This document shows, piece after piece, positions 1,661-53,810 of a DNA stretch of 58,139 nt. The notes beneath the pieces are model-generated. The model saw nothing but the letters and a program-made list of their open reading frames with translations, did no database searches and was not told the origin of the DNA. Source of the DNA: Bacteroidaceae bacterium (GTDB lineage Bacteria; Bacteroidota; Bacteroidia; Bacteroidales; Bacteroidaceae); assembly GCA_017467015.1 (NCBI GenBank), contig JAFTTA010000204.1:1-58139 (forward strand), in the 5' to 3' direction. The position numbers were made by a program, and so were the translations under genes. Within the stretch, counting starts at the first letter, position 1. Every line of letters begins with the position of its first letter.

Positions 1661-1672
1661 AACAAGAAAGCT

Positions 1673-15137: not shown

Positions 15138-15235
15138 ATATGTTTTTTGTAAATTTTTCAACCTGCTTGCACTCTTTGCCGAGTGTCTATTGTGTTGAGT
15201 TTCTTGCCATGTAGGCACAATACACAAAATTTCGG

Positions 15236-15243
15236 CAAATTTA
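15236..15243 (-). promoter_or_regulatory. Possible -7 box for the DUF2723 gene
   Basis: TAAATTTG on the minus strand, about 100 nt upstream of the ATG at 15137. Confidence 0.3.
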
Positions 15244-15573
15244 CTGATAAGGGGCGAAATGAGCAAATAATGTGTACTAAAATATATAAATTCCGGATTA
15301 TCTATAACCTCTCTATGATTGATATATGCTCCTTTTTGACGACGTCGATTAAAGGCTGCGAAATTGAAAATTTTTCAAACGGTAATGGACATAATTATGT
15401 ATCCTATAATGATAGTGAAATAATAAATTGTAGACGATTGTTTTTTTTATCCTAGCTTCTTTGAGAATAAGAGAGCGCTTATTGTTAATGTCTCGTCTTT
15501 CTTAAGGTATATCCCATTGTTAAACAATGTAATAATTTTGTGAAAAAAGATGTTTCCAAATGACTAAAAATGT

Positions 15574-15581
15574 TAACTTTG
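15574..15581 (+). promoter_or_regulatory. Bacteroidota -7 box for the three-gene giant surface-protein operon
   Basis: TAACTTTG lies 125 nt upstream of the ATG at 15706. It is the only exact plus-strand TAnnTTTG match I found in the 568-bp AT-rich intergenic region. Confidence 0.55.
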
Positions 15582-15705
15582 TTGCGAAAAAGGTGTAGTA
15601 CCGGATTAAAGAATGAATGAAGTGGTTGTAATGAATTGAAAACCACTCTTTTAGTGTGGTGTTATGCTTGGTAAACCAAAGAAGTAAAAAATAAATAATA
15701 TTACA

Positions 15706-18700
15706 ATGAAAAAGACCTTTTCAAGCACATTACTTATAAATGTGCTAATAGCGTTATTATGTGTAGAGAATTTATATGCTGAAGCAATCTTGCCATACGG
15801 ACAATTCACAAAAGAGCCTTGGCAAGGAAAATATTATTATGCACTAAACACAGAAGGGGCTGCTGCCGCTGATTGGTATACTTCTGATTTTGACGACGCC
15901 TCTTGGGGTGTAGTCAGCGGACCTATGAATACCTCTCTTTCGAACTACAAGTATGCCGCAACAAAATGGTCCGAAAATTATTCCACCTATTGGGTACGCC
16001 GCAATTTTACATTGACATCCATATCTGACGATGATGTATTTGCAATGTTTTTCATTCATGACGACGAATGTTCTGCATATCTGAATGGTCATCTTGTGTA
16101 TGAAAGCAATAATGTAAATTCAAACACAATCACAACTATTTTGACCGATGAGATGAAAAATTATCTCAAAACAGGTGAAAATGTATTGGCAGTAAAAACC
16201 TGCGACTCAGACGGTGGTGAAGCCTATATGGATTTTGGATTGTATAAATACGACAACGATGGTTGCATCTTCGGAATAACCGATGTAAATGTGGATATAA
16301 CCAACGATACAGAATATCCGTGGTGCGTAGACACTTCAAACCTATGCTCGGTCAACGGAAATAAAGGCAAAGCGAATTCGGTATCTTCAATCTCATTGAC
16401 TTTCGAGTCGGAATACAGAACAGAAATCATGTTTGATTGGTCGTGTTACAATAGTTCCAACCATTCACTGCAATGTTATGTCGATGGCGAGCTAAAGGCT
16501 ACTACCACAAATTCAGACTATTCAACCCCAAGGTTTTATCTCGAAGACGGCAAACACACGGTAACATTCCGCGACACAATAGGCAATTCGACAAGCCTTT
16601 ATAACGACAGTCGTGTCAGAAATTTCAGCGTTAAAGAAATAAAGCCCCTCGAATCGGCAGTGCTCTCACCTGCATCAAAGCAGATAAAATTCGCAAACGA
16701 CGTCACCTACCCATGGATAATAAAAAACGATTATATACAAAACACCAATTATGGTGTGGCAAATTCCATATCAACTTTCCACACCACATTTACCATAGAC
16801 GAAACCTCCAAACTTTCATTTGAACGTTTGGTTGCTCCATATGGCACATATTGGAACTCAACCACTTCTTCATGGGATAGCAACCAAGAATTGCGTACCA
16901 TAATCAACAACGAAACATACATAAGCGATGTCCGTGTCGAAGAATGGAGCAAATTCAGCCTTGTCCTTGAGCCCGGAACATACACCGTTGAATGGAAAGA
17001 CACCATAGCAAACACCACCAGCGATTACTACAGCCGCATTCGTAACATAGAACTCTCTTCGGAATGGCTTGAGGTGGAACTTGCCTCTGCCGGAACACTC
17101 GGTGTGGAAGTTTTGCATAAAGTAGATGTCCTTACAGATATAGACCTATTGAAAATCAGCGGAAAACTCAATGCGGATGATTGGGCAAAAATCAAACAGA
17201 TGAGTAATCTTGTGGCTCTTGACTTAAGCGAAGCAGTGTTTGATACACTCCCTGCAAGTGCATTTGAAAATCTTGCAGTTTTCACAAGTGTGAAACTTCG
17301 CGAAGGTGTGACTACGATTGGTGAAAATGCCTTCCGAGGAACAAATATCAGAAAAATATCTATACCTTCAACAGTTACATCAATAGGAGGGTTCGCATTC
17401 TACCGAACCCCTTTGCTAGAAGTCAATTTTGCAGCAGATTCAAAATTGAGCTTCCTTGGAGAAAACGTGTTTGCATATTGCGAACAGTTGAAAGGCATCG
17501 AATTGCCAAATTCACTCACAGTATTGCCCTCTCAGGCATTCTATGGGTGTAAAAAAATATCCAAACTCGTACTTCCTGCGAAAATAGAAGAGATAGGAAA
17601 CTATTGCTTCTATGGAAACGAAAGTTTGTCAAAACTAATCCTTCCCGAGTCACTGAGAACAATATCTGATTTTGCTTTTGCCGAATTGCATCTTTGCGAC
17701 ACAGTTATCCTGCCTGTGCGTCTTGCAACTTTGGAATATCGTGCTTTTGATAATTGCACCGGTTTGAAATATGTGGAATTACCCTCATACTTAAGCTCCA
17801 TTCAAAGTGTATTCAGTGGCTGCCCGAATATTGCGACCATTGTCTGCAAGGCGGCAACCCCCCTCTCGATTACATACAACGACCCATTCCCTTCTGTAAA
17901 CAAAAGCAATGTTACATTATGTGTACCCTCATTTGCGGTAGTAGACTATAAATTTGACGCATATTGGTATCAATTTGGTGCGATAACCGAAGGAGACGAT
18001 GTGGGATATTGGAAGATAGTCGATAAACTTGCGCTTACAAGCAATCGCCGTATGCAAGGCGCTCCCGACATCGATTTATATTATGGCGGTTCACTCACAG
18101 TCGGAGGCAATGCCCCCATGGAAGTATCAATGTTCAATATGTATATAAATGAAACCAACCCCGGTCAATTGTTGAACAATACAACCGATTTTACAGCCGA
18201 CAGTATAAATATCTATTTCGAGGTAGCTGCCGATATATGGTATTTCATAACCCCCATGTACGATGTTGATTTATCAGAAGTGACGCACAGCAACAATGCC
18301 TCATTCGTGTTCAGATACTACGACAGCGAAAGTCGTGCTGCAAATGGTGCCGGCGGTAGTTGGAAGAATGTAACAGATTCCAAACTTCTTGCAGGACAAG
18401 GATATATCTTCCAATGCAGCAGGCAGGGCGTTGTAACCTTCCCCACAGGAGCAGACGATGCTGTGCAGGCACAATTATTTGCATCTGCGGACATTAATAA
18501 AGCACTCACAGCACATGACGCCGAACTTTCTGCAAACAAAAACTGGAACTATGTAGGTAATCCCTATCCCTCATACTACGATATACATTATATTGACTTT
18601 ACCGCCCCCATCACAGTGTGGACAGGAAATACATACAAAGCATACTCGATAGCCGATGATGAATTGGTGCTTCGCCCGATGCAGTCGTTCTTTGTTCAGA

Positions 18701-19446
18701 AACCCGATGCAGTAGACAATATAATCTTCCGCAAGGAGGGACGACAATTGACACCGACTTCGCAAAAAGCAGACAATATTAATTCACGTCAGCCAAAATC
18801 AGCGTCAACGCGTTTCCTTTTCAATCTGCAAATAGCAAACGAAGAAGCATTGGGCGATGAAACCCGTGTGGTAATAAACGAAAAGGCATCTATCGGCTAC
18901 GACATGCAGTCCGATGCTGCCAAGTTCATGAGCATAAAGAACAATGTACCACAGATATTCACTGTAGATGCCGAAGGAAACAGCTATGCCATCAACGAAC
19001 GTCCCATTGTCGATAGTACCGTTAAACTGGGCTACTGCGTTTCGCAGACAGGCTTCTATACAATAAGCGCAATCGGTGCAGATGGAGAGATAGAACTCAT
19101 AGACAATTTGCTGAACAAAAGCATAGACCTTACCGAGCAGAGCTATCTGTTCCATTCGGGAGCAACAGCCGGCAACAACACCACACGTTTCACTCTGAAA
19201 ATAACAGTAGACAATAACGGGCTTACTAATGTCGACGATACCGATGTAACCGAAACAATTGTTAACGCAAGCAAAGGTATCATTAATATCATGACGGGCT
19301 CAACAATGCCGTACACCGTATACACGCTTGACGGTCGAGTAGTGGCAAGTGGCGAGACAGAAACAGCGCCTGTGAAAGTGGCACTTCCCGCAGGCACTTA
19401 CGTTGTACGCCTTGATAACAAAGTGCTCAAAACAATTGTATTTTAA
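15706..19446 (+). CDS. BspA-like leucine-rich-repeat surface protein, T9SS cargo
   Basis: 1246 aa with a signal peptide. GH2-N-like galactose-binding jelly roll (DDASWGVV, YWVRRNFTL, NGHLVYE, GENVLAVK). Two paralogous modules of about 120 aa (..TYPW..). BspA-type LRRs (IGENAF, IGGFAF, LPSQAFYGC, IGNYCFYG, ISDFAF, LEYRAFDNC). C-terminal T9SS CTD (YTVYTLDGRVV..GTYVVRLDNKVLKTIVF). Confidence 0.88.
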   Translation: MKKTFSSTLLINVLIALLCVENLYAEAILPYGQFTKEPWQGKYYYALNTEGAAAADWYTSDFDDASWGVVSGPMNTSLSNYKYAATKWSENYSTYWVRRNFTLTSISDDDVFAMFFIHDDECSAYLNGHLVYESNNVNSNTITTILTDEMKNYLKTGENVLAVKTCDSDGGEAYMDFGLYKYDNDGCIFGITDVNVDITNDTEYPWCVDTSNLCSVNGNKGKANSVSSISLTFESEYRTEIMFDWSCYNSSNHSLQCYVDGELKATTTNSDYSTPRFYLEDGKHTVTFRDTIGNSTSLYNDSRVRNFSVKEIKPLESAVLSPASKQIKFANDVTYPWIIKNDYIQNTNYGVANSISTFHTTFTIDETSKLSFERLVAPYGTYWNSTTSSWDSNQELRTIINNETYISDVRVEEWSKFSLVLEPGTYTVEWKDTIANTTSDYYSRIRNIELSSEWLEVELASAGTLGVEVLHKVDVLTDIDLLKISGKLNADDWAKIKQMSNLVALDLSEAVFDTLPASAFENLAVFTSVKLREGVTTIGENAFRGTNIRKISIPSTVTSIGGFAFYRTPLLEVNFAADSKLSFLGENVFAYCEQLKGIELPNSLTVLPSQAFYGCKKISKLVLPAKIEEIGNYCFYGNESLSKLILPESLRTISDFAFAELHLCDTVILPVRLATLEYRAFDNCTGLKYVELPSYLSSIQSVFSGCPNIATIVCKAATPLSITYNDPFPSVNKSNVTLCVPSFAVVDYKFDAYWYQFGAITEGDDVGYWKIVDKLALTSNRRMQGAPDIDLYYGGSLTVGGNAPMEVSMFNMYINETNPGQLLNNTTDFTADSINIYFEVAADIWYFITPMYDVDLSEVTHSNNASFVFRYYDSESRAANGAGGSWKNVTDSKLLAGQGYIFQCSRQGVVTFPTGADDAVQAQLFASADINKALTAHDAELSANKNWNYVGNPYPSYYDIHYIDFTAPITVWTGNTYKAYSIADDELVLRPMQSFFVQKPDAVDNIIFRKEGRQLTPTSQKADNINSRQPKSASTRFLFNLQIANEEALGDETRVVINEKASIGYDMQSDAAKFMSIKNNVPQIFTVDAEGNSYAINERPIVDSTVKLGYCVSQTGFYTISAIGADGEIELIDNLLNKSIDLTEQSYLFHSGATAGNNTTRFTLKITVDNNGLTNVDDTDVTETIVNASKGIINIMTGSTMPYTVYTLDGRVVASGETETAPVKVALPAGTYVVRLDNKVLKTIVF
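17068..17870 (+). repeat. BspA-type (LRR_5-like) leucine-rich repeat array
   Basis: About 10 degenerate units of roughly 23-25 aa, each with an I/L-x-x-x-A-F-x-x-C/T core. Confidence 0.75.
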
Positions 19447-19472
19447 TAATTTAAACAATTAAATCTTTCAAC

Positions 19473-22400
19473 ATGAGAGGTTACAAAAGCATACTCTTGC
19501 TGCTGACGCTGATATTTTGCGTCGGCATACAGGGGCAATACATACAAGCAAAGCCATCAGCAACTACGGGTGAATATGGTACAAATACCATGTTCATAGA
19601 AAATATATCCGGAATGCAAGACAGCCTTATAACCATAGATGTAAATATGGTTAACGATGTCGATGTGACAGCATTCCAATTCGACCTTTACCTTCCCGAT
19701 GGTCTTACCATCGTCGAAAATGAAGGCTCTCCGCTTATAACCCTCTCGAATGATAGGAAAACCCCTTCCCACACAATCGAATGCTACACGCAACCATCCG
19801 GTGCAATGAGTGTAATCTCCTATTCCATGGATAGCTCTGTCTACAAACTCAGCGAAGGCACCATCGTCAAAATACAGGCAAAAGTATCATCGTCCATGAG
19901 TGTCGGCGAGCACAACATAACGATGAAAAACATTCGTTTGGTAAAGCCTGACGCCAAGGAACTGGTAACAGTATCGCGCACCTCTCTTTTCACTGTAAAA
20001 GGGCTGACCCCTTCGGTTTATACACTGACACTTAGGTCCATCCCCGAGGATGCCGGAAGTTTCAATATAAATACGGAAACAACCTACACACGAGAGACCA
20101 ATGTGTCGTTGCGAGCATACAAAAACAACGGGTTCGACTTTGTCGGATGGGAACTCGATGGAGAAATAATATCAACATCCATGTCGTTAGTATACACCAT
20201 GCCTACAAAAAACATACAGCTCACTGCACGATACGAGTATAATCCCGACAATCCCTCGGAGCCCGATGTGCCTGTGATACCCCTCTATAGCACCCTGAAC
20301 TTAGCAGTAACACCAAGTGAGGCGGGATACATAAGCTTGATAACAGGTAACAAGTACGAAGTAGGTACAATAGTCAATATCAGTGCCTACAACTATACGA
20401 ACTTTAAATTCAAGAACTGGACATGCAATGGCGTGGTAATCTCCACCGACTATTCATTCAGCTACACCATGCAATCGGGAAATCCCACATTGGTGGCAAA
20501 TTATGAATATGCTCCCGACAACCCCGGGGAACCACAAGAACCATTGCTATATCACACCCTGACCATTGAAAGTAATCCGGTCGAAGGTGGATATTTCAAT
20601 ATCCCATCCGGTAACAAATATCAGGCAAACAGCATCGTAAACTTGTCTGCGTATTCCCACCGATGGTACAAATTTAAAAACTGGACAATAGGTGACAGTG
20701 TTATATCAACATCCGGTAATTTTAGTTACAAAATGCCGGCATGTAATGTGACGCTGACGGCAAATTACACCTACGACTACAATCCCGACGACCCCGACGA
20801 CCCCGATAAACCCACTACGAAAAATACAATCTACGGTATGACCGAAAATGGTGTCCGTGGTCAAAAAATAGTTTACCCTATATATCTTGAGAACACGCCA
20901 TCTGTACGAGATGTAAGTTTCACAATTCAATTTCCCGAAGGCTTTATAGTAACCAAAAATGAAATACAACTTGCAGGACGCGCTTCGGCACACACAATGA
21001 CAATCGATTCGTTGGGTGACAATAAATACAGTTTTAAACTGACAAGCGAAAATGTTTTTGACAATGCCAATGGGAAAATATTAGATATTCCTGTCAACAT
21101 CCCCGACACGGCAGCTATGGCATTCAGTCACCCTGTTACAATCACCAATGCCATTGTTACCGACACGCTTAACGCAATGTCGGCAGGCTCCATCCGCAGT
21201 GGATATATATATGTCGAAAAGGCAACCGAAGAGGGATTATATGCGAAATTCTCGTATGACAAACTGCACGGAAGAGTGAAGTTCACCAACCTCTCTTCCG
21301 AAAAAGCCATCAGCTACACATGGGATTTCGGTGACGGCAATACAAGCAGCGAGAAATCGCCTATGCACACATACAGCAGCTCAGGATATTATACCGTCAA
21401 ACTGAAAGTAACCGGAGCAACGACAGAAGATACGGCTGAATCCATCATTCTCATAAACGACGAAAGCACATGGAAAGCCGGTGGAACATATTTCCTTGCC
21501 GACAAGGAGTACAGTGTGCGCCATTTTACATCTGCCGAATCATTACTTGACTTTATCTCTGTTTCACAAACAGTTACCGAAGATATAAATATCAAAGTCG
21601 GTTCCGACCGAGTTTATATGTTGGATATAAACGACGACAATCTTTCCAATCTCGAAGATATGCGTTCTAAAATATCCTCATCGTCAAATACTCTCCATTT
21701 CACTCCCATTGAAGAGGACGACACCTCTGTAGTGGCATTGGGCAGCGCCGAAGATGATATAACCCCTGCCCTCATAGAGCTCTTCAATAATTTTGCCGGT
21801 TTCACAACAAGTGAAAATGTGAAAATGATGCTCTGTGGAATAGAGTTCAATCCCGGTATGATAAAAACATATTCCGACCAGACAGTTGCATCGGGCGTTC
21901 CAACAAAAGCATTCAACTTTGCAAAAATCAGTCGTGATATTGATTTTCAATGGACATTGGTCACTGTGCCCGACACAACAACCGTCAACGGATTTTTGAC
22001 CTCCGGAGCGGACTCAATACCCTCTATGACAATAATAAACATTGGCACAGAGAGCGTTACACTCACATACCACATTGTAGCCGCATACAACGGAACAACA
22101 TTCTGTGAATTTGACAAGAATATAACCATAATCAGTGCAGATGATTTTGTCTATGAGAGCGAGTGGAACATATTAGTGGCGATAAAAGAACATTTGACCG
22201 CGGGCGGATGGAACACTCCATGGAATATGTCGGCAGGCATTGCATCCGTAGGCTCTCTACACGGAGTGACTATCGACCATGGCTACGTCGTGGATATAGA
22301 TTTATCAATGCAAGGAATAACAAGCACATTCCCTGTCGCAGCATTGCAATTGCAACGTCTGAAATCTCTGTCGTTCGCCCATAATAAAATGAGTGGCGAT

Positions 22401-23639
22401 GTTGCGCGTGACATATTGCAGGCAATGACAATAATAATGGAAAGCAATCCGGAATATGTGTCGCAATTAACCAACCTCAATCTTTCCGACAATAAATTCA
22501 GTGGCAACATAGGATTGCTATCGTCGCTATCATCCGTGTTTGCAAATCTTGAAACCCTGAACGCATCAGGTAACCTTTTTGCCGACCTGTATCCGGTGCT
22601 CCCATTGAGTATCACAAACCTTAATCTTTCCGGACAATCAACCGATGCGATTGTAAATACAGATATCAACAATATTACCACAGAGACCGTTCGTTCGTTG
22701 CCTCGCATTCTCACCTACAACCATAAAGAGCAGATGTACAATCTTCTCCCATCGCTACGACTGACAAACTATCGTCCGACAGATGCCACGGCGAGCGGCT
22801 CATGGGGAATAGAAGCAGATGCCTCCTCGGGAACGACTACTCTGAGAGGGCTTGAAGACTATGTATATAAAGGTCAGAGCGGTGACACCCTCTACCTCTC
22901 ATATCCCGATGCCGACGTAGAAGTTGAAAATTCATATTGTCGAACAATATTTAATTTCAGCATAGGTGACGCAAACTTTTTGGGAGGAGTGGATGCAACC
23001 GATCTCCAAAGTACCATACTATATATCTTTGGAGAATATGCCAATCGACCTTTCAACTTCACAGCTGCAAATACGTATGTCGACAACAACATAAATGTAC
23101 AAGATGTAATAAAAACTGTCGATATACTGCTGCAACAAAATGCAGAAGATACTATCACTCAAATAGAAAACAGTCCGATGCCGCAAGCAACCTCAGACGC
23201 GCTCGAAGCAGCAGCGGAGATAATAGCAGAAAACGGACAGATTAAATTGCGTACATCCACCCCCGTGGCTGCCATCTGCATACACACCGCAGGTGATGTA
23301 CAGTGGAATATAAAACCCTACGGGCTGGAGCAGACAACAAGCAAAGGAACGCTGGTTGGATACTCCTTCATGGGAGGGACGTTACCGGCAGGCGAGAACA
23401 TAATAGGAACATACAACGGCGAAATAAACATTAACCGAGTATCACTATCGGATAATAATGCAGATAATATCCCAGTGAACGTCAAGAACGGTCAAATAAC
23501 CTCAATAGATAATATCATGCAGGAGAACGGCGAAGTCACAATATATGACCTCACCGGCGGCAAGCACGATAAGATGAACAAGGGAATAAATATAATAAAG
23601 AGTAGAAGCAATATCATTAAGATATATAACAACAAATAA
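19473..23639 (+). CDS. Scaffoldin-like multidomain T9SS cargo: 2 cohesin-like, 3 InlB-B-type repeats, PKD, LRR and a dockerin-like module
   Basis: 1388 aa with a signal peptide, starting 26 nt after the previous gene. PKD motif YTWDFGDGNTSSEKSPMHTYSSSGYYTVKLKV. C-terminal CTD-like end (VTIYDLTGGKH..INIIKSRSNIIKIY). Module coordinates are listed as separate features. Confidence 0.88.
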   Translation: MRGYKSILLLLTLIFCVGIQGQYIQAKPSATTGEYGTNTMFIENISGMQDSLITIDVNMVNDVDVTAFQFDLYLPDGLTIVENEGSPLITLSNDRKTPSHTIECYTQPSGAMSVISYSMDSSVYKLSEGTIVKIQAKVSSSMSVGEHNITMKNIRLVKPDAKELVTVSRTSLFTVKGLTPSVYTLTLRSIPEDAGSFNINTETTYTRETNVSLRAYKNNGFDFVGWELDGEIISTSMSLVYTMPTKNIQLTARYEYNPDNPSEPDVPVIPLYSTLNLAVTPSEAGYISLITGNKYEVGTIVNISAYNYTNFKFKNWTCNGVVISTDYSFSYTMQSGNPTLVANYEYAPDNPGEPQEPLLYHTLTIESNPVEGGYFNIPSGNKYQANSIVNLSAYSHRWYKFKNWTIGDSVISTSGNFSYKMPACNVTLTANYTYDYNPDDPDDPDKPTTKNTIYGMTENGVRGQKIVYPIYLENTPSVRDVSFTIQFPEGFIVTKNEIQLAGRASAHTMTIDSLGDNKYSFKLTSENVFDNANGKILDIPVNIPDTAAMAFSHPVTITNAIVTDTLNAMSAGSIRSGYIYVEKATEEGLYAKFSYDKLHGRVKFTNLSSEKAISYTWDFGDGNTSSEKSPMHTYSSSGYYTVKLKVTGATTEDTAESIILINDESTWKAGGTYFLADKEYSVRHFTSAESLLDFISVSQTVTEDINIKVGSDRVYMLDINDDNLSNLEDMRSKISSSSNTLHFTPIEEDDTSVVALGSAEDDITPALIELFNNFAGFTTSENVKMMLCGIEFNPGMIKTYSDQTVASGVPTKAFNFAKISRDIDFQWTLVTVPDTTTVNGFLTSGADSIPSMTIINIGTESVTLTYHIVAAYNGTTFCEFDKNITIISADDFVYESEWNILVAIKEHLTAGGWNTPWNMSAGIASVGSLHGVTIDHGYVVDIDLSMQGITSTFPVAALQLQRLKSLSFAHNKMSGDVARDILQAMTIIMESNPEYVSQLTNLNLSDNKFSGNIGLLSSLSSVFANLETLNASGNLFADLYPVLPLSITNLNLSGQSTDAIVNTDINNITTETVRSLPRILTYNHKEQMYNLLPSLRLTNYRPTDATASGSWGIEADASSGTTTLRGLEDYVYKGQSGDTLYLSYPDADVEVENSYCRTIFNFSIGDANFLGGVDATDLQSTILYIFGEYANRPFNFTAANTYVDNNINVQDVIKTVDILLQQNAEDTITQIENSPMPQATSDALEAAAEIIAENGQIKLRTSTPVAAICIHTAGDVQWNIKPYGLEQTTSKGTLVGYSFMGGTLPAGENIIGTYNGEININRVSLSDNNADNIPVNVKNGQITSIDNIMQENGEVTIYDLTGGKHDKMNKGINIIKSRSNIIKIYNNK
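19581..20000 (+). other. Cohesin-like module 1
   Basis: ISGMQDSLITIDVNMVNDVDVTAFQFDLYLPDGLTIVEN ... GTIVKIQAKVS ... HNITMKNIRLV matches the cohesin pattern (a set of strands, the 'FQFDL.LP.G' core, then a final 'I.L.N....' strand). Confidence 0.6.
20016..20800 (+). repeat. Three tandem ~85-aa InlB-B-type (Listeria-Bacteroides) repeats with NPDNPxEP / NPDDPDDPD linkers
   Basis: YTLTLRSIPEDAGSF..FDFVGWELDGEIIS..IQLTARYEYNPDNPSEPD; YSTLNLAVTPSEAGYI..FKFKNWTCNGVVIS..PTLVANYEYAPDNPGEPQ; YHTLTIESNPVEGGYF..YKFKNWTIGDSVIS..VTLTANYTYDYNPDDPDDPD. Confidence 0.8.
20821..21164 (+). other. Cohesin-like module 2
   Basis: IYGMTENGVRGQKIVYPIYLENTPSVRDVSFTIQFPEGFIV ... GKILDIPVNIP ... HPVTITNAIVTD. Confidence 0.55.
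22338..22640 (+). repeat. Short LRR array with LxLSxNxFSGxI-type units
   Basis: LQRLKSLSFAHNKMSGDV .. LTNLNLSDNKFSGNIGLLSSL .. LETLNASGNLFADLYP .. ITNLNLSGQ. Confidence 0.6.
22956..23137 (+). other. Dockerin-like module (two degenerate Ca-loop/helix segments)
   Basis: GDANFLGGVDATDLQSTILYIFG ... ANTYVDNNINVQDVIKTVDILLQQ. These are two 12-residue D/N-rich loops, each ending in D and each followed by an amphipathic helix, spaced as in type I dockerins. Confidence 0.55.
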
Positions 23640-23643
23640 TGCC

Positions 23644-26600
23644 ATGAGCACAAACAAGATAATAACCACAATAACATTTCTGTTGCTTAATACCATTGCA
23701 CTGTTTGCTCAGAATGTGTTGTCCGTTCCGGATGTAACAGTCGCAGCAGGAGAAACCATACGCATTCCCATCAATCTTGACAATACGGAAGATGTGGTGG
23801 CGGCTCAGTTTACCCTCACTGTGCCCGATGGCATAACACTCTCTCCCACATCGGCAACAATGTCGGAGCGTTCAAACGGACACTCAGTCACCATGCGTCG
23901 CATGGCATCCGGAAAGTACATGGTGATGATATTCTCATCAGAGAACAAAGCAATCTTGGGACGTACCGGAAAAATAATGACGGTTAATATCAGTGCCGCC
24001 GCCTCAATGCAGGAAGATTCTCAACACGAAATGAGCCTTTCAGACGTCATCATAGGTGCTCGTGATGGCTCTAATATAGTATCCTCGTTCAATACAGGAA
24101 AAATAATTATAGCACCAGCCCCCGACCTCGCAGTGTCTAATGTCTCAACAGACAGACAAGAATTCAATCCTGCGGAAAGAATAACAGTCTCATGGACGGT
24201 AACAAACGTGGGAGGCAGCACAACGCGAGGCGGATGGAGCGAGCAAATCACACTTGTATCGACAGATGGAGAAACAACCACCCTCATCGGGCGAGTGTAT
24301 CACAACGAAAAACTTGCCATAGCAACACCACTCACTCGTCAGGTAGATATAGAACTGCCTAAAATATTAGAAATGGATGGCAACTGTCGTCTACAAGTGA
24401 AACTTATAGCAAACAGCGATGCAGGCGAACACTCCGAATCGACCGATAACAATGTGGCACATACAGATGTCACAACAGGTAAAAAAATATACCTTAGCAT
24501 CCCCGACGTTCCTATAGAAGAAAATATCGGCACGCCCGTTCGTTGCAAACTTTCACGTAGTGGAAATCGTGACAGCGAAGAACTTTTTACATTAAACTGC
24601 TCCAACAACGCGCGAGTAAAAATACCCTCAACAGTTACCATCCCCGATAAAAGTTCCGAGGTCTACTTCTATGCCGAAGTAGTAGACAATGACACCATTG
24701 ATGGGCAGACCCGTGTCGCAATAACCGCAACAAACAACGATTATCTTCCCGTAGAAGCAGAGATGCTTATAAAAGATAATGAATATCCTACTTTGAGCGT
24801 AGCATCGTCAAAATCAATAATCACGGAAGGAGAAAAATTCACACTGACAATAACCACTGAAAAAGCCTCTGTCGAACCTATAAACATAACACTGACAAGC
24901 GAGTATAGTAAAAAATTCAGCTTCCCATCACAAATAATCATACTGCCCGGCGAAAAAGAGACCACTGTTGAAGTCGCTACAGTAGACGACGACATCCCCG
25001 ATGCCTCGGTTGGTGCAACATTCTATGTATCCTCTACCGACTGTAACAATGGCGAAACGGTAGTCTTGTTGCACGACAACGACCTGCCCGAAATAGAGCT
25101 GACATTTGCTCCCGACACCGTTAGTGAGTCTGCCGGAGCAACAGCGGTAGTTGCAATATTGCGTCGATTGACAAACTGCGATAAAAAAGCAACCATCAAC
25201 CTCAGCGACAATTCAGAAGGCAAACTTTTGTATTCTACAAAAAGTGTCACTATGGATGCAGGAATAAGCGAACAGCAGATAACTATCGGCGTCATAGACG
25301 ATAATACGATAAACGGCGAACAGAAATATACAATAACAGCAGCGCTTTATCTCACTTCATGTAATTGCTCCGCCACAGGAACCAATGGAGGCGTGGTAAC
25401 ACGTACATTGACAATCCTCGACGACGATGCTGCATCGCTTGCCCTTGCCTCCTCAAAGTCAATGCTTGTAGAAGGGGCCGAAGAAGCAACCACACTTACC
25501 ATTACCCGCAACACAGACACGTCAGCTCCTCTCGTTGTTACCCTCACAAGCAGCAACGACGAAAAACTCATCTATGAGAGAACCGTGGAAATTCCCGTAG
25601 GAGAATCATCTGTCACCACGCTTGTATCGGTAAAAGGTGATGATGTTGTAACCCCCGACCAAACAGTAACATTCACAGCCGTTGCTGATGGACATACTAA
25701 AGGAACATGTTGGGCAATGGTTACCGATAATAGTTATCCCGATGTCATCATTGACAGTCTGCGCGTACAGTCCTTAACAATGGAGGCATCGTCTATTGCA
25801 GAAATTGCTCTCACCATCAAAAACGATGGCGTGACCACCATGCCCTCAAATGCAAAGGCTGAAATATATATAAACAACATATTAACCACAACCCTATACA
25901 CACTTGATTGCCTTGAACCGGGCGAGAGCACCACTTTGGTCAAACAAGTGGCAATGCCTGCCACACCCGGCACCCATACACTTCATGCCACAATAAATAA
26001 CGACAAGAAAATCAAAGAACTGACATATCTAAACAATACATCGGAAAAAGTTCTCTTGACATTGCTCTCGCAATATACCTTAACGGCAAATACAGATAAG
26101 GCAATATATCAGTCGGGCGAAAATATCAAGATAAGTGGTGAAGCGACAGGAACAAATACCACAAACGCCCAAGTTGAAATATACATCATAAACAGTGGTG
26201 TCCGCCGGACAATGACAACCACCACAGATGCCACCGGTAAGTACTCGGTAACATGGAAACCATATAGCAATCAATCGGGACATTTTGTTGTAGGTGCGTG
26301 TCAGCCCGGTGAAAATTCCATGGAAGAACAAACTGCATTCGATGTTTATGGACTGAAGTTAGCAACAACATCGCCCATTCTTTGCGAAACATTTGTCGAT
26401 GAACCGTATAATGGAGTAGTACCCCTCGTCAATCCCGGACAATTGGCACTCACTAATATAAAAGCAGAAATTATTTCGGCACCAGAGGGATGCTCTGTGG
26501 AATTTACTCCAATAGAGAAAATAGAAGGCGATGCAACGGCAAACCTTGCATTCACCATCAATAGTCAAGCACCCTCTACAGCAAGTGATTGGGAACAAAT

Positions 26601-29600
26601 CAAAGTTCGTGTGACAACTGCCGAAGGGGCATCTGCCGATATTACCCTATACTACTACAGCTGTTCTCCTAAAGGATTGCTAAAGGCAAACATTACCGGC
26701 ATCAACACCACAGCAACCAAAGGAACATATCGCGACTACTCGTTCACCATCACAAATGTAGGTGCAGGCAAGACAGGGAAAATAACATTGGCACTTCCCG
26801 ACGTTGAGTGGATGAGCGCAGTGACATCCAAAGAAATGACATCTCTTGAACAAGGAGAGGCAACAACAGTCATTCTGCGTCTGTCGCCCACAGAGGATAT
26901 GCAACTAAATGTACCTCGTACAGGTAAAATAGGCATAAATTGTGAAAACGGGACCGGACTGTCATTGAACTACAAGGTAGAGGCTGTTTCCCAGACAACC
27001 GGTATACTCGTTGTTGATGTATGCGACGAATACACCTATTATACCGCTGAGGCTCCACATCTTGCAGGTGCAAAAGTCGTGTTACGCCATCCGGTAACAA
27101 AAGAACTTGTCTTCGAGGGAATCACCGGTCCCGATGGCTTATATAAAGTGGAACTTCCCGAAGGTTATTATCAATTAGAGGTTAGTGCAGATAAACATGA
27201 TACATATACAAATACCATACTTGTCGACCCGGGTAAGGAAACTCCTATAACAGTAGACCTCAGTTTTCAAGCTATAACAGTTGATTGGGATGTACAAGAG
27301 ACAGAGGTGAAAGACGAATACAGATTAGTCTCCACAGTAAAATATGAGACAAATGTACCCGCCCCGGTGGTGATACTAAATATCCCCGAGCGTATAGATG
27401 GCGACGACATGGCTGCCGGCGAGAGCACTCTGGTATATTTCACCGTTACAAACAAAGGTTTGGTAACCGCTTTCAACGTGGAGGTATATATACCGGAAAA
27501 CAGTGCAGAGTGGAAGTTTGAAGCATTGGAAAATGCCGGTCCTTTCAATCTCGCAGCACATCAAGCCGTCACCATCCCCGTGCTTATAACTCACCTGACC
27601 GATGGCACAAGCAGCAGTAGGAGCAAAAGCAATATCTCTCGTGCCGGGGGTTACAACTATTTCGGCAGTTGCATGGCGCAAGCATCTGCAGCCTACGAAA
27701 TAATATGTGGCAAAACCATAAAAACAAACAAATACACTCAAACAATGGCTCTCAAAATGTGTGGAACGGCAGCCATTGGAGCCACCATATTAGATGTCCT
27801 TAACGATATATACCGTGGCGGTTGGGGACGTGTAAACCCACCATCGTATGTGGTTCCGCCAACAAATAATGTAGAATACAAACCTGTCGATAAAAAAGTG
27901 GTAGTAACTACAGGTGAAATGTTCTCGCTTTGTGATACCTGTGACGCTCAGAAAGCCTCTGATTTGGTCGAAGTGGTAATAGGTCTTTCAAGCCTTAGCA
28001 CACTTAACGATGCTGCAAACATGGCCATAGAGGATATAAACAGAATGAAAGAGGGTAAACAATCCGAATACAAGATAACAATAACCAAAAAAGCTCTTAA
28101 ATCTCTCATCAGCGAGATAGCCAAAGCAAACAGTCAGGTTATTGAGATAGGCTTCGGCGTCATCGAATGGATAAAGAATGTCAAAGATTTGGTTGATGCT
28201 CTCACAAAAGAGTGCCCCTCCACCCAAAATAAGAAAAGCAAGCTACGCGGCGTTGAGTATGCTTCGGAACGCAGCTGGCAGGAACAACTCAATGTTGTAG
28301 GGAAGGAATTCTCTCACTATATATCACTTGTGCCAGCAATGATGGGAGAATTGTTTGGCGACTCAGTGTGGTTCGACAGGGAACTGGATGCAAAGGTCGA
28401 ATTCTTTAACTATCTCGTAGAGCACGATTCAGTGACACTCGACGAACTCCTCTTGGTGAAACCCGACGATGTAACAGATGAACAGGTGGAAGCACTCGTA
28501 AATAGAATAGAGAATTTTGCAACAGGCGCATCAGATGACAATACAATAGATATAAATCTCTTGGACTCATTGAGTAATGAAGCTGCAACGCTTAACGAAG
28601 CAGCCATGCGTGCAGGTTACGAATCACTCTATGCACAATTTGTTGACGCCCATGAGACAGCCATGGACTTTTATCGTGGCGCATCTTCGTCGGTCTGTGC
28701 ATCCGTCACCTTGCAATTCTCACAAGAGATGACAATGACTCGCCAAGCATTCCGTGGTACACTCACCGTCTTTAATGGTCACGAAACAAAAGCAATGGAA
28801 AATGTCAAACTCATCCTTGACGTGACAGACGAAAATGGCACAACTGCAACCTCGCGCGAATTCCAAATAAATGTTGAGGGTCTAAGCCAATTTGACGGGG
28901 CATTGAAACTCGACGGCGGTTGGTCGTTGCAGGCAAACGAGAAAGGTATTGCTACAATCCTCTTTATACCTACAAAGTATGCAGCACCCACAGAAGACGT
29001 AAAATACTCCTTCGGTGGTAGATTGTCGTACCTCGACCCATTTACCGGGCTCGAAGTAACTCGTAATCTCACGCCTGTTACCATGACGGTTAAACCATCG
29101 CCTCAGTTAGACCTTACCTATTTCATGCAGCGCGACATTTATGGTGATGATCCGCTTACTACTGCTGTTGAACCAATAAAGGAAGCTGAATTCTCATTGC
29201 TCATAAACAATGTAGGCAACGGCATCGCAAAAGATGTCAGAATGATGACCGAGCAACCCAAAATTATAGACAACGAGAAGGGATTGCTTGTGAACTTTGA
29301 GATACTCGGCAGTCTGCTCAACGGTAAAGAAAAGAGCATGGCTATGGGTGGCGATGTAGCAACCGACTTCGGAACCATAGCACCCGGTAACACAGCATAT
29401 GCACAGTGGTGGTTGACAAGCACTCTGTTGGGACACTTTGTCGATTATGATGTTGAAGCAACCCATGTCACAAGCTACGATAATCCCGAACTTACGCTGC
29501 TCAATAACGTTACCATACGCGAACTCATCCGCAGTTTGAATGTTGTCGAAGGTCCTGATACCATGGTCGGATTTATGGTAAATGACATCGGGGATGCTTA

Positions 29601-31737
29601 TGATTTGCCCGATATGCTATATCTTTCCAACGGCGAGGTTGAAAAGGTGCAAATCGCTGCTTCTTCAAATATCTCAAAAATATCCGACAATGAATATCTG
29701 TTGAGTGTAACTCCTTCGGATAGCGGTTGGAACTATGGACATATTTCAGACCCCACATACGGTGTTGCCGAACTCGACAAGATAATACGTAAAAGCGACA
29801 ATCGTGAAATAAGCCTGAGAAATATTTGGCAAACAGACCGAACATTGCGCGATGGCAAAGAACCATTGTATGAAAACAGAATACATTTTGCAGATAAATT
29901 TGCAGCATTGGCAGGCGAAGAATATTTGTTGATATTCAAACCTTCTCCCTCACCTCTGCTCGAAGTTCAAAGCTTTGTCGGAGTTCCCGCAGCCGAAGAT
30001 GTATGCACCAAACAACTTACCGACATCACGCTGTTGTTCAACAAAGAAATCAACGATACTACATTTACTGTTGATGATATAACATTGACTTGTCAAGGTA
30101 ATAAGGTAGATAATGCAGATATCACAATTGAAAAAATCTCTGTAAAAGAGTATAAACTCATACTCTCAAAGGTTACCTTGAATGATGGCTACTATGTGCT
30201 TACCGTTCAAACAGCAGGCATCATTGATGGTGAAGGATTCTATGGCAAGAGCGGAAAGCAGGCAGCATGGACACAGTTTGTTCATGGCAAGCTGCCATTA
30301 AAAGTCGCAATCTCCCCGGTCGAAGGCGGTACAGTATCACACACCTCCGGTCACTACCCATGCGATACCACCATTGTGGTAAAGGCCGTACCCGCAGAAG
30401 CATACACATTCAGTCATTGGATGGTTAATGCCGATACATACAGTAACGACACGGTTTGCAACCTCACACTCACGGACAACACAGAGCTTACCGCAGTATT
30501 TGCAAAAAAATTCTATAAGTTGACCATAGAGTGCGATACAACCAAAGGTGTCGTAAACAACGCCGCAACAGGTATCTATGAGTATGGTAGTGAGTTTACA
30601 CTTAAAGCCGAACCCTTGGAAGATTGTGTGTTTGAGGGTTGGATAGTGAACGGTGTCGCAGGTGGTACCCAAGATACACTTTGCGTGAAGATGGACACCA
30701 CCCTCAACGTAACGGCAAATTATAAACGTGTAAGATATCATCAGAAACAAAAAGTTTACAAAGGCTGGAACTGGCTATCCAGCTACATTGGCGATGAAAT
30801 CTCCATAGATGTCTTTGAATCGGGTGTCAACAGAGTACTGACCCAGATTAGCGAACTCATACGTGACCCGGAGCTCGGTCTCGTAGGTGATATAACCTCC
30901 ATAAAATGCGGTGAAGGCTATAAAATAGAAGCAATATACTCTTCACTACGAACAATGAGTGGCGTTCTCCACAATACTGAAAAAACCCCGATAGTTCTGC
31001 GTAAAGGCTGGAATTGGATATCTTATCCCTATAATGAGGAGCGCACCATCTCATCAGTGATACAAAATCCCGAGGAGGGCGACTTCATTGTTTCACAAGA
31101 GGGATTCACTGAGTATGCCGACGGATACTGGGAAGGTACCATCCAAAATTTTGTTCCCGGAGCCGGCTACATATACAAATCGATGGCAAAGAAAGAGCTT
31201 GCTTTCAATTTTGTGAAAAAATCGTCACAAAACCGACTCAAAGCAAGAAACATGCAGTCTGTAACCTATGCTCACGAGGTTGATATAAGAAAGTATCCAT
31301 CGACCATGAATATCACAGCTCGCATGTATAAAGACAATATGGAATATGGCGATGAAACATGTATACTCTATGCCATGGACGGAAACGAGTGTCGCGGAAT
31401 AGGTAAACTCATAGGTAAGAATTACTACATAACCATATATGGCGACAAGCCGGTCGATATATCGTTCATTGTAGAAAATACCTCCACCGGCGATACATAT
31501 CTGGCAAATGAAACATTGCAGTTCAGCGAGGATGTGGTCGGCAGCAGAAAATCACCTTACACAATAACAATAGACAATCCAACAGGTATTAACTCTGTGG
31601 ATGATGGCAAACAAAGAATGAAAGTATATAGTATCGAAGGTGTATTGATAGAACCTGCGGCAGACAAGGAGGCACTCAAACGCTTGCCAAAAGGTATATA
31701 CATCATAGACGGTAAAAAGTATCGTATAAACAAGTAG
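23644..31737 (+). CDS. Giant (2697 aa) multidomain T9SS cargo: cohesin-like, CARDB, 4 Calx-beta-like, Ig-like/CarboxypepD_reg-like, central helical region, 2 InlB-B-type repeats, GWNW cassette and CTD
   Basis: Starts 4 nt after the previous stop. Signal peptide MSTNKIITTITFLLLNTIALFAQ. CARDB-like PDLAVSNVS..VSWTVTNVGG and PDVIIDSLRV..IKNDG. C-terminal CTD MKVYSIEGVLI..GIYIIDGKKYRINK. Confidence 0.9.
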   Translation: MSTNKIITTITFLLLNTIALFAQNVLSVPDVTVAAGETIRIPINLDNTEDVVAAQFTLTVPDGITLSPTSATMSERSNGHSVTMRRMASGKYMVMIFSSENKAILGRTGKIMTVNISAAASMQEDSQHEMSLSDVIIGARDGSNIVSSFNTGKIIIAPAPDLAVSNVSTDRQEFNPAERITVSWTVTNVGGSTTRGGWSEQITLVSTDGETTTLIGRVYHNEKLAIATPLTRQVDIELPKILEMDGNCRLQVKLIANSDAGEHSESTDNNVAHTDVTTGKKIYLSIPDVPIEENIGTPVRCKLSRSGNRDSEELFTLNCSNNARVKIPSTVTIPDKSSEVYFYAEVVDNDTIDGQTRVAITATNNDYLPVEAEMLIKDNEYPTLSVASSKSIITEGEKFTLTITTEKASVEPINITLTSEYSKKFSFPSQIIILPGEKETTVEVATVDDDIPDASVGATFYVSSTDCNNGETVVLLHDNDLPEIELTFAPDTVSESAGATAVVAILRRLTNCDKKATINLSDNSEGKLLYSTKSVTMDAGISEQQITIGVIDDNTINGEQKYTITAALYLTSCNCSATGTNGGVVTRTLTILDDDAASLALASSKSMLVEGAEEATTLTITRNTDTSAPLVVTLTSSNDEKLIYERTVEIPVGESSVTTLVSVKGDDVVTPDQTVTFTAVADGHTKGTCWAMVTDNSYPDVIIDSLRVQSLTMEASSIAEIALTIKNDGVTTMPSNAKAEIYINNILTTTLYTLDCLEPGESTTLVKQVAMPATPGTHTLHATINNDKKIKELTYLNNTSEKVLLTLLSQYTLTANTDKAIYQSGENIKISGEATGTNTTNAQVEIYIINSGVRRTMTTTTDATGKYSVTWKPYSNQSGHFVVGACQPGENSMEEQTAFDVYGLKLATTSPILCETFVDEPYNGVVPLVNPGQLALTNIKAEIISAPEGCSVEFTPIEKIEGDATANLAFTINSQAPSTASDWEQIKVRVTTAEGASADITLYYYSCSPKGLLKANITGINTTATKGTYRDYSFTITNVGAGKTGKITLALPDVEWMSAVTSKEMTSLEQGEATTVILRLSPTEDMQLNVPRTGKIGINCENGTGLSLNYKVEAVSQTTGILVVDVCDEYTYYTAEAPHLAGAKVVLRHPVTKELVFEGITGPDGLYKVELPEGYYQLEVSADKHDTYTNTILVDPGKETPITVDLSFQAITVDWDVQETEVKDEYRLVSTVKYETNVPAPVVILNIPERIDGDDMAAGESTLVYFTVTNKGLVTAFNVEVYIPENSAEWKFEALENAGPFNLAAHQAVTIPVLITHLTDGTSSSRSKSNISRAGGYNYFGSCMAQASAAYEIICGKTIKTNKYTQTMALKMCGTAAIGATILDVLNDIYRGGWGRVNPPSYVVPPTNNVEYKPVDKKVVVTTGEMFSLCDTCDAQKASDLVEVVIGLSSLSTLNDAANMAIEDINRMKEGKQSEYKITITKKALKSLISEIAKANSQVIEIGFGVIEWIKNVKDLVDALTKECPSTQNKKSKLRGVEYASERSWQEQLNVVGKEFSHYISLVPAMMGELFGDSVWFDRELDAKVEFFNYLVEHDSVTLDELLLVKPDDVTDEQVEALVNRIENFATGASDDNTIDINLLDSLSNEAATLNEAAMRAGYESLYAQFVDAHETAMDFYRGASSSVCASVTLQFSQEMTMTRQAFRGTLTVFNGHETKAMENVKLILDVTDENGTTATSREFQINVEGLSQFDGALKLDGGWSLQANEKGIATILFIPTKYAAPTEDVKYSFGGRLSYLDPFTGLEVTRNLTPVTMTVKPSPQLDLTYFMQRDIYGDDPLTTAVEPIKEAEFSLLINNVGNGIAKDVRMMTEQPKIIDNEKGLLVNFEILGSLLNGKEKSMAMGGDVATDFGTIAPGNTAYAQWWLTSTLLGHFVDYDVEATHVTSYDNPELTLLNNVTIRELIRSLNVVEGPDTMVGFMVNDIGDAYDLPDMLYLSNGEVEKVQIAASSNISKISDNEYLLSVTPSDSGWNYGHISDPTYGVAELDKIIRKSDNREISLRNIWQTDRTLRDGKEPLYENRIHFADKFAALAGEEYLLIFKPSPSPLLEVQSFVGVPAAEDVCTKQLTDITLLFNKEINDTTFTVDDITLTCQGNKVDNADITIEKISVKEYKLILSKVTLNDGYYVLTVQTAGIIDGEGFYGKSGKQAAWTQFVHGKLPLKVAISPVEGGTVSHTSGHYPCDTTIVVKAVPAEAYTFSHWMVNADTYSNDTVCNLTLTDNTELTAVFAKKFYKLTIECDTTKGVVNNAATGIYEYGSEFTLKAEPLEDCVFEGWIVNGVAGGTQDTLCVKMDTTLNVTANYKRVRYHQKQKVYKGWNWLSSYIGDEISIDVFESGVNRVLTQISELIRDPELGLVGDITSIKCGEGYKIEAIYSSLRTMSGVLHNTEKTPIVLRKGWNWISYPYNEERTISSVIQNPEEGDFIVSQEGFTEYADGYWEGTIQNFVPGAGYIYKSMAKKELAFNFVKKSSQNRLKARNMQSVTYAHEVDIRKYPSTMNITARMYKDNMEYGDETCILYAMDGNECRGIGKLIGKNYYITIYGDKPVDISFIVENTSTGDTYLANETLQFSEDVVGSRKSPYTITIDNPTGINSVDDGKQRMKVYSIEGVLIEPAADKEALKRLPKGIYIIDGKKYRINK
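23710..24115 (+). other. Cohesin-like module 3
   Basis: LSVPDVTVAAGETIRIPINLDNTEDVVAAQFTLTVPDGITLS ... GKIMTVNISAA ... HEMSLSDVIIG. Confidence 0.6.
24480..25740 (+). repeat. Four tandem ~105-aa Calx-beta-like modules
   Basis: Each unit shows the pattern '..E..G....L.I.R.......V.L......(K/R)........V.I..G.S......V.DD...(D/E)......' and ends in DN(D/E/S)(Y/L)P or DDDAA. Examples: LIKDNEYPTLSVASS, LLHDNDLPEIELTFA, ILDDDAASLALASS, MVTDNSYPD. Confidence 0.65.
30291..30733 (+). repeat. Two InlB-B-type repeats in the 2697-aa protein
   Basis: LPLKVAISPVEGGTVSH..YTFSHWMVNADTYS..ELTAVFAKK and YKLTIECDTTKGVVNN..CVFEGWIVNGVAGG..LNVTANYKRV. Confidence 0.7.
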
Positions 31738-31763: not shown

Positions 31764-31806
31764 ACAGAAAGCAAGAAATTTTCTTGCTTTCTGTATCTTT
31801 TTTTAA
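31764..31806 (+). terminator. Rho-independent terminator of the three-gene operon
   Basis: acagaaagcaagaaa / tttcttgctttctgt palindrome (31764-31794) followed by a long T run. Confidence 0.85.
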
Positions 31807-41523: not shown

Positions 41524-41544
41524 TCTTATAAGTTTTACGGGTTG

Positions 41545-42234: not shown

Positions 42235-42238
42235 GATA

Positions 42239-44557: not shown

Positions 44558-44572
44558 CTGTTGCTGACGTTT

Positions 44573-51982: not shown

Positions 51983-52033
51983 ACCTGTTTCTCTTTTTTA
52001 CTATAGTGTGTATAATCCAAATCCCCGCCTTAT

Positions 52034-53749: not shown

Positions 53750-53778
53750 ATTTTTTCTATGGTTTATAGAAACATAGT

Positions 53779-53810
53779 ATTGCAGTACCGGACTACTCCG
53801 GTACTGCAAT
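53779..53810 (-). promoter_or_regulatory. Perfect 13-bp stem-loop between operon genes 1 and 2
   Basis: attgcagtaccgg-actact-ccggtactgcaat starts 6 nt after the gene-1 stop codon (TAA at 53817-53819 on the minus strand). No U tract follows it on the minus strand. Confidence 0.8.

Follow-up and report, generated by a model that had tools for sequence, protein, structure and literature searches.

Among described systems, those closest to the locus reported here are the cellulosomes and amylosomes of Firmicutes (Acetivibrio/Clostridium thermocellum, Ruminococcus flavefaciens, R. bromii), in which cohesins are likewise carried by large non-catalytic surface proteins and the scaffold genes are clustered. 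Bacteroidetes are generally thought to use polysaccharide utilization loci (PULs) and not cohesin-dockerin assemblies. Dockerins, and rare cohesins, of Bacteroidetes and Prevotella are on record in bioinformatic listings, which state that their role is undefined (PMC6487960, PMC4035507, PMC7480376). The non-cellulosomal dockerins of rumen Prevotella and Bacteroides come from the same phylum and habitat as our locus and were also found bioinformatically; the reports on them (Peer et al. 2009; Bensoussan et al. 2017, PMC6487960; PMC7480376) list single modules, for the most part dockerins attached to enzymes or encoded in PULs. In the literature searched we found no description of a conserved operon that pairs a dockerin protein with a cohesin-bearing giant protein. 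Here we present the computational analysis of such an operon, located in a contig of 58,139 nucleotides from a Bacteroidaceae bacterium (JAFTTA010000204.1, assembly GCA_017467015.1), the whole of which we refer to as the window. Its genes 1 to 3 (Table 1) have counterparts in Prevotellaceae and other Bacteroidales, and we give about even weight to the reading that this conserved operon encodes three secreted giant surface proteins that build a cohesin-dockerin scaffold.

The comparison with the Firmicutes systems shows both likenesses and differences. As in the adaptor scaffoldins ScaA and ScaB, cohesins and a dockerin are combined on one protein, the product of gene 2, and the dockerin consists of a duplicated loop-helix (F-hand). 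In contrast to the cellulosome, however, the host is a Gram-negative member of the Bacteroidota, and the proteins are probably exported and anchored through C-terminal tails of the type IX secretion system (T9SS) type, not through SLH domains or a sortase. The locus has neither a carbohydrate-binding module (CBM) nor a glycoside hydrolase, and both calcium loops of the dockerin are short of one ligand. The dockerin is internal, about 165 amino acids (aa) from the C-terminus of gene 2, inside a cassette made of leucine-rich repeats (LRR), dockerin, beta domain and tail. Finally, gene 3 carries a single cohesin on a stalk of 2700 aa, whereas the cohesins of the cellulosome are arranged in tandem.

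The initial annotation had described three same-strand open reading frames (ORFs) separated by 26 and 4 nt. The ORF coordinates agree: all three are on the + strand and together encode 5331 aa. The TAACTTTG box upstream of gene 1 and the terminator downstream of gene 3 were likewise found where it had placed them, the latter being the sole strong + strand terminator of the region; the gene 3' of the operon has its own TAACTTTG box. TAnnTTTG is the Bacteroidetes-type -7 promoter motif. The signal peptides attributed to all three proteins are plausible by eye (MKKTFSSTLLINVLIALLCVENLYA/EA, MRGYKSILLLLTLIFCVGIQG/QY and MSTNKIITTITFLLLNTIALFA/QN). An invertible, phase-variable promoter was also considered, and was rejected because no long inverted repeats were found around 15150-15800.

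Six-frame scans of the whole window with hidden Markov models (HMMs) identified exactly three cohesin-like modules and one dockerin-like module, distributed as first proposed: C1, C2 and the dockerin in gene 2, and C3 at the start of gene 3. With a gathering cut-off of 24.1 bits for Pfam Cohesin (PF00963), C3 is recognised on its own, and precomputed PF00963 matches exist for at least 11 gene-3 homologues, plus P0241. The C3-family HMM detects C1 and C2 (Table 1); reciprocally, the C2-family HMM gives C3 62 bits. When the family profiles were compared with PDB, the best match of C2 was the cohesin 2xdh_A (E 0.0022; cohesins were four of the six top matches) and that of C3 the cohesin 4uyp_A, aligned end-to-end (E 0.0012; 8 of 16 matches were cohesins). 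Judged by sequence, C1, C2 and C3 are divergent cohesins, C1 and C2 being homologous to C3. An architecture census found C1 only in the P0001, P0002 lineage. Among the segments of gene 3, C3 ranks second in conservation, with a mean identity of 51%.

Gene prediction can hide these modules. In the related locus L001 the called start of the gene-3 homologue lies 3' of the true module, since a whole cohesin (14214-14600) is encoded in the frame that is open from 14214; in L011 a stop or frameshift divides the cohesin (2505-2876), one part of which belongs to a 106-aa ORF and the other to the main ORF. Surveys of called proteins would therefore miss the N-terminal cohesins of both loci.

The dockerin-like module consists of two loop-helix repeats, DANFLGGVDATD-LQSTILYIF and NTYVDNNINVQD-VIKTVDILL. 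Of 21 orthologous modules, 15 match Pfam Dockerin_1 (best E 1.3e-5), and nine of the 11 best PDB matches of the family profile are dockerins (best E 0.098); the family HMM also picks up a canonical dockerin in L001 (25 bits). The AlphaFold model is confident (predicted local distance difference test, pLDDT, 93.3) and places three helices, at residues 16-26, 37-40 and 50-62, so that the predicted layout is loop-helix, short helix, loop-helix, the three-helix fold of dockerins. A Foldseek search of PDB with this model bore out the proposed fold, since the top 34 matches were all dockerins, the best with a probability of 1.00. The first 24 had template modelling (TM) scores of at least 0.73, and the best matches, type I dockerins, superposed on the predicted fold with TM mostly 0.75-0.83 and root-mean-square deviations of 1.5-2.6 A; the remainder had TM of 0.52-0.72. 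Together with the Pfam Cohesin score of C3, these results mean that the cohesin and dockerin assignments withstand the refuting condition which the initial annotation had set for them. No segment of gene 2 is more conserved than the dockerin (65% mean identity), and the high conservation of this module and of C3 may be read as purifying selection.

The strongest argument for a functional pair comes from related loci. A dockerin is encoded by the gene immediately 5' of the gene-3 homologue, and the gene-3 homologue opens with a cohesin, in 11 of 11 loci (the window, L004, L001, L002, L003, L005, L006, L007, L009, L010 and L011). One of them, L004, is a 99%-identical locus on the NCBI metagenome-assembled genome (MAG) GCA_054265195.1; among species-representative genomes, only Xylanibacter rodentium (related locus L002) and a goat-rumen Prevotella MAG matched, which places the source organism in the Prevotellaceae. 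Genes for an LRR_5 protein, a gene-2 homologue and a gene-3 homologue follow one another, as in the window, in L001, L004, L005, L007 and L009, in each of which a gene-1-type LRR_5 protein is the conserved upstream neighbour. In L006, L007 and L010 the upstream protein is without any cohesin and retains the dockerin. Since the dockerin is kept even where the gene-2 cohesins are lost, the invariant pair is the gene-2 dockerin and the gene-3 cohesin. The initial annotation had allowed the dockerin two partners, a cohesin of gene 3 or one of another gene-2 molecule, and this comparison of sequences favours the former. P0203 was examined as a cohesin-less negative control and discarded, its cohesin being merely split by a frameshift or stop, with the upstream dockerin present (L011). 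The L012 contig ends at the start of the gene-3 homologue, which leaves the upstream gene outside it, and neither locus served as a negative control.

Dockerins also occur at the other end of this family, and these exchanges of domains favour the same reading. In the gene-3 homologue P0204 a canonical dockerin takes the place of the C-terminal tail, and P0208-P0211 combine the gene-3 core with LRR_5 and a dockerin. In L001, a 195-aa protein encoded 3 nt downstream of the gene-3 homologue (22286-22873) consists of the gene-3 pre-tail domain and a canonical dockerin; its pairwise BLAST match to the gene-3 C-terminus is weak (E 0.011), and the homology is shown by profile comparison (39 bits). 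A C-terminal domain (CTD), a short tail or a dockerin can thus follow the same pre-tail domain, which suggests that the dockerin serves as an anchoring device.

The presence of gldM and gldN in the window shows that the organism has a T9SS, and the machinery together with the Sec signal peptides (by eye) is what is expected for type A cargo. The claim that all three proteins have a T9SS CTD did not survive in that form. The C-terminus of gene 1 is below the cut-off in both models that detect it (TIGR04183, 15.3 bits against 23; DUF6383, 19 bits against 23.7), and genes 2 and 3 end in short CTD-like tails of ~40 aa that match no model. Weak Por_Secre_tail matches were obtained for 4 of 23 gene-3-type tails and for none of 17 gene-2-type tails. 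Orthologues are canonical at the same position: P0160, P0161, P0163 and P0179 have a ~80-aa CTD in place of the gene-3 tail, and the gene-2 relative P0116 ends in a canonical Por_Secre_tail domain. From this sequence comparison, the tails are likely to be shortened CTD-like signals, and T9SS export of the proteins is likely.

Gene 3 has 145 homologues, reaching Flavobacteriales and Verrucomicrobia, of which the distant ones are without cohesin; gene 2 has 198, none with an informative name. Annotation of both families is uninformative, nearly all members being nameless and a few carrying hypothetical or generic domain labels. The gene 2 product contains, in order, a cohesin, three InlB B-repeats, a cohesin, a PKD domain, a middle domain, the LRR, a beta domain, the dockerin, a second beta domain and the short tail. 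That of gene 3 contains CARDB, CarboxypepD_reg and two Flg_new_2 domains (Pfam), and two conserved cores, aa 166-1320 and aa 1681-2230, flank a fast-evolving insert. The N-terminal core is conserved out to the homologues of Verrucomicrobia and Flavobacteriales. With the model of aa 1681-2110, Foldseek retrieved only integrin leg domains and pilins, at TM <0.22. Because this model is all-beta and resembles only such domains, an enzyme in the core was rejected; as modelled, the region is a series of packed beta-sandwiches and not an enzyme. Gram-positive pilins of the kind that the core model resembles carry intramolecular cross-links. At the start of this core (aa 1681-1705, 28684-28760) C1685 is a near-invariant Cys, and the Gln at Q1694 and the Arg at R1700 do not vary, even in homologues from other phyla.

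In all three proteins, searched whole and as segments against Pfam and NCBIfam, there was no significant catalytic domain. In the search for an enzyme hidden in gene 3, Pfam and NCBIfam gave no significant match, and PDB was queried without result, both with the one protein sequence and with a profile of 19 sequences; Glyco_hydro_66 (E 0.019) and Agarase_CBM (E 0.003) were set aside because both matches map to non-catalytic beta-sandwich parts of those models. The insert (aa 1321-1680) matched nothing in Pfam, PDB or toxin families. About 15 homologues have 600-800 aa at the insert site, and in these Pfam recognises lipase-like alpha/beta-hydrolase domains. The proposal that the system contains no enzymes therefore holds for the window, where no significant catalytic match was found, and fails for the family, in which some gene-3 homologues have lipase-like inserts and the LRR-dockerin cassette is found on peptidases. 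A purely non-enzymatic lattice is for this reason just one possible reading.

Giant proteins of this build have precedents in the phylum. The SprB-type gliding adhesins of Flavobacterium are likewise multi-thousand-residue proteins of beta-sandwich repeats, from T9SS-bearing Bacteroidota and encoded near gld genes. Unlike in those systems, the type B CTD model TIGR04131 has no match here at E <= 1, there is no sprF/porP-like partner gene, and cohesin and dockerin modules are present. The product of gene 1 is a BspA-type LRR protein, with an LRR_5 score of 174.5 bits (E 1.1e-51, two stretches; Pfam) and matches to solved Bacteroides LRR proteins in PDB (best 4fs7_A, E 7e-31). BspA is a recognised T9SS LRR cargo (PMC5445135). 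Gene 1 has the LRR_5 region and a CTD-like C-terminus in common with LRR adhesins secreted by the T9SS, among them BspA of Tannerella forsythia; it differs from BspA in its sub-threshold CTD and in being fixed in an operon with cohesin and dockerin proteins, which is not described for BspA.

Table 1. Features of the three-gene operon and of the T9SS genes in the same window (positions in the window; aa, residues of the encoded protein; pTM, predicted TM score).
Feature	Position	Strand	Basis and remarks
gldM and gldN (T9SS core genes)	83-2737	+	Pfam GldM_1st to GldM_4th (E 6e-61 or lower), GldN (E 3.5e-53)
TAACTTTG box	15574-15581	+	Read directly from the sequence; 125 nt 5' of the gene-1 ATG; putative promoter element
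Gene 1	15706-19446	+	ORF, 1246 aa; BspA-type leucine-rich-repeat surface protein
Gene 1 LRR_5 region (aa ~455-720)	17068-17865	+	Pfam LRR_5
Gene 1 C-terminal CTD-like domain (aa 1177-1246)	19234-19443	+	Below threshold on TIGR04183 and DUF6383
Gene 2	19473-23639	+	ORF, 1388 aa; adaptor-like protein
Cohesin-like C1 (gene 2 aa 31-180)	19563-20012	+	Pfam Cohesin 20.7 bits, E 5e-4, below cut-off; C3-family HMM 41 bits
Three Flg_new_2 (divergent InlB B-repeat) domains, gene 2	20025-20807	+	Pfam E 2e-31, three stretches
Cohesin-like C2 (gene 2 aa 446-600)	20808-21272	+	No Pfam match alone; C3-family HMM 52 bits
PKD domain, gene 2	21273-21443	+	PKD_4 E 1.3e-13; ColH PKD structures E 6e-14
LRR region of the conserved C-terminal cassette (gene 2 aa ~896-1090)	22158-22742	+	LRR_4 21.3 bits, weak; matches LRR structures
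Dockerin-like module (gene 2 aa 1160-1222)	22950-23138	+	EF-hand-type loop plus helix, in two copies; both loops degenerate
Gene 2 short CTD-like tail (EVTIYDLTGGK...KGINIIK...KIYNNK)	23520-23636	+	No model match
Gene 3	23644-31737	+	ORF, 2697 aa; stalk-like, mostly beta-sandwich domains, N-terminal cohesin
Cohesin C3 (gene 3 aa 21-165)	23704-24138	+	Pfam Cohesin 29.4 bits, E 1e-6 alone; 21.2 bits inside the full protein
Gene 3 N-terminal conserved core (aa 166-1320)	24139-27603	+	CARDB-like, repeated ~100-aa, MG2/Big_7-like and CarboxypepD_reg domains; Pfam
Fast-evolving insert (gene 3 aa 1321-1680)	27604-28683	+	23% mean identity; free of low complexity, Ala/Leu/Glu-rich, helical by eye, conserved cysteines
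Highly conserved all-beta core (gene 3 aa 1681-2110)	28684-29973	+	64% mean identity; AlphaFold pLDDT 90.4, pTM 0.86, all strands
Two Flg_new_2 domains (gene 3 aa ~2215-2360)	30286-30723	+	Pfam E 8.8e-17
Pre-tail domain (gene 3 aa 2535-2655)	31246-31608	+	HMM 39 bits on L001:22286-22873; 102 bits on the L008 Por_Secre_tail protein
Gene 3 short CTD-like tail (MKVYSIEGVLI...KGIYIIDGKKYRINK)	31609-31734	+	No model match
Intrinsic terminator	31764-31806	+	Hairpin of 14-15 bp (14 pairs, loop of 3), then the ATCTTTTTTT T-run; operon end

The sequence analysis shows, in silico, the modules with their folds or homology, the layout of the operon and the joint conservation of dockerin and cohesin. From these features we infer that dockerin and cohesin bind, that they do so in dependence on calcium, that the T9SS exports and anchors the proteins, and how the following assembly is arranged in space. 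Gene 3 would provide a beta-sandwich stalk of ~2700 aa that probably exits through the T9SS and would be held by its C-terminal CTD-like tail, with the cohesin at the free N-terminal end. Gene 2 would act as the adaptor, its C-terminal LRR-dockerin cassette docking on the gene-3 cohesin, and its own cohesins C1 and C2 could offer docking sites, to which either additional copies of gene 2 or different dockerin proteins of the same cell might attach. Gene 1 would be a co-expressed BspA-type LRR adhesin. The outcome would be a surface fibril or scaffold, assembled by cohesin-dockerin contacts, on a Gram-negative cell.

The partners of such cohesins could also be encoded elsewhere. We searched 1.84 billion cluster representatives with the profile of the cassette dockerin and obtained 5391 matches at E <= 1e-3, an upper bound since canonical multi-dockerin proteins from other phyla (for example, of a Patescibacteria MAG) are among the high-scoring matches, and 565 at E <= 1e-10. 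In these matches the module typically lies about 165-230 residues before the C-terminus. A sample of 31 cassette proteins had LRR_4 in 19 of them and, as passengers, Peptidase_S8 (three), C10 (one), M6 (one), CBM26/X25 (three) and Cohesin (one). Related contigs encode further dockerin proteins near the operon, an Endonuclease_1-Dockerin_1 protein in L006 (1-1377) and a 1453-aa, hexosaminidase-associated Fn3_assoc/CHB_HEX_C_1/Dockerin_1 protein in L010 (18780-23141), and the small dockerin protein of L001 lies within the operon itself. This wide distribution, together with the Prevotella and Bacteroidetes dockerins on record whose partner is unknown (PMC6487960, PMC7480376), would fit a display platform, a Gram-negative analogue of the cellulosome or amylosome scaffoldin, on which dockerin proteins encoded elsewhere in the genome (peptidases, nucleases, glycan-binding and small dockerin proteins) are the main ligands of the gene-2 and gene-3 cohesins and the link between genes 2 and 3 is one contact of many. 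We regard it as unlikely that this is the principal role of the operon: there is no second dockerin in the 58-kb window, neither an enzyme nor a CBM was found in the three proteins, and part of the 5391 matches belongs to the multi-dockerin proteins of other phyla. A broader proposal, which we advance tentatively and hold to be possible rather than probable, is that Bacteroidota own a cohesin-dockerin surface assembly parallel to the Gram-positive cellulosome, in which the gene-3 stalk cohesin would receive a widespread LRR-dockerin-tail cassette of ~500 aa borne by adaptors, peptidases, glycan-binding proteins and adhesins.

Several observations weigh against an assembly of the three proteins. 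C1 and C2 are under the Pfam Cohesin threshold, and the gene-2 copy of the dockerin does not match Dockerin_1 (PF00404) at E <= 10, so that the Pfam models, which support C3 (29.4 bits alone) and most of the orthologous dockerins, fail for the other modules of the window (C1, 20.7 bits; C2 and the gene-2 dockerin, no match). Each 12-residue loop of the dockerin lacks one canonical calcium ligand, having Leu at position 5 in loop 1 and Tyr at position 3 in loop 2. None of the three proteins carries the CTD of a type A cargo, as defined by TIGR04183/PF18962 above cut-off. Gene 1, having neither cohesin nor dockerin, has no evident place in a complex. Synteny is inherited, and the eleven loci are not independent observations. 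Finally, if both proteins were anchored C-terminally, the dockerin would be near the membrane and the gene-3 cohesin about 2600 residues from its own anchor, which is awkward on one cell; such a topology would fit arches, cell-cell contacts or the release of one partner.

The sub-threshold modules and the degenerate calcium loops would be expected if the operon encoded three independent, co-expressed adhesins that do not bind each other, with the cohesin-like modules as beta-sandwich spacers and the dockerin-like module as a calcium-stabilised structural element, a role that has been suggested for many dockerins outside cellulosomes. The bulk of the three proteins consists of adhesin-type domains (LRR_5, InlB B-repeat, PKD and CARDB), the gene-3 core is akin to pilin and integrin leg domains, and, according to what PMC6487960 cites of Peer et al. 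2009, cohesin- and dockerin-like modules are common outside cellulosomes without known partners. Nevertheless, we find this explanation doubtful. The dockerin and C3 are kept jointly in all loci while other modules vary, conservation in gene 2 is highest in the dockerin, and the interchange of CTD, short tail and dockerin after one pre-tail domain suggests a role in anchoring. An assembly through the invariant gene-2 dockerin and gene-3 cohesin is the reading that we prefer. A function in interbacterial competition, with gene 3 as a carrier and its central insert as a variable payload by analogy with polymorphic toxins, would fit an insert that evolves far faster than its flanks (23% versus 64% identity), its replacement or extension by lipase-like alpha/beta-hydrolase domains in about 15 homologues and an RHS/YD-shell protein that follows LRR_5 and cohesin-bearing proteins in L008, but is very improbable, because the window has no toxin, immunity or RHS genes, the payload of known polymorphic toxins is C-terminal and not internal, and the insert matches no toxin family.

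Some neighbouring and paralogous genes deserve mention. L008 (GCA_963634715.1, CAVHDC010000016.1; 6521-23598) is a paralogous cluster that encodes an LRR_5 protein, a 2252-aa protein, the RHS/YD-shell protein and a DUF7619/Por_Secre_tail protein. The 2252-aa protein shares aa 183-889 of gene 2, which includes a cohesin, and has no dockerin; the DUF7619/Por_Secre_tail protein contains the gene-3 pre-tail domain. Divergent from the operon and upstream of it in the window, positions 11781-15266 (- strand) encode a 1161-aa homologue of TMEM260-like protein O-mannosyltransferases (E 1e-75), which also adjoins the operon in L004; a link of this homologue to surface-protein glycosylation is conceivable. 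Further downstream, positions 39142-57110 (- strand) contain six co-directional ORFs (793, 229, 772, 2469, 591 and 1097 aa) almost without Pfam matches. The 1097-aa ORF matches Big_2 (25.6 bits) and, weakly, Por_Secre_tail (15.6 bits), the 772-aa ORF has sub-threshold matches to Glyco_hydro_39_C (18.8 bits) and fn3 (14.4 bits), and the 2469-aa ORF has no Pfam match. Possibly these ORFs form another operon for giant surface proteins of the orphan kind. No Rfam family matched anywhere in the window.

The locus provides clonable candidates, one dockerin and three cohesins, together with a strong comparative prediction of which of them form a binding pair; if this prediction is true, protein engineers would gain a new orthogonal cohesin-dockerin pair. 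Should the broader proposal hold, the cohesin of gene 3 would be the hitherto unassigned binding partner of the Prevotella and Bacteroidetes dockerins. If the interaction between genes 2 and 3 is true, modular cohesin-dockerin assembly would also exist on the outer surface of Gram-negative bacteria, probably downstream of the T9SS, and would bear on how adhesins and enzymes are organised on the surface of the abundant gut Prevotellaceae.

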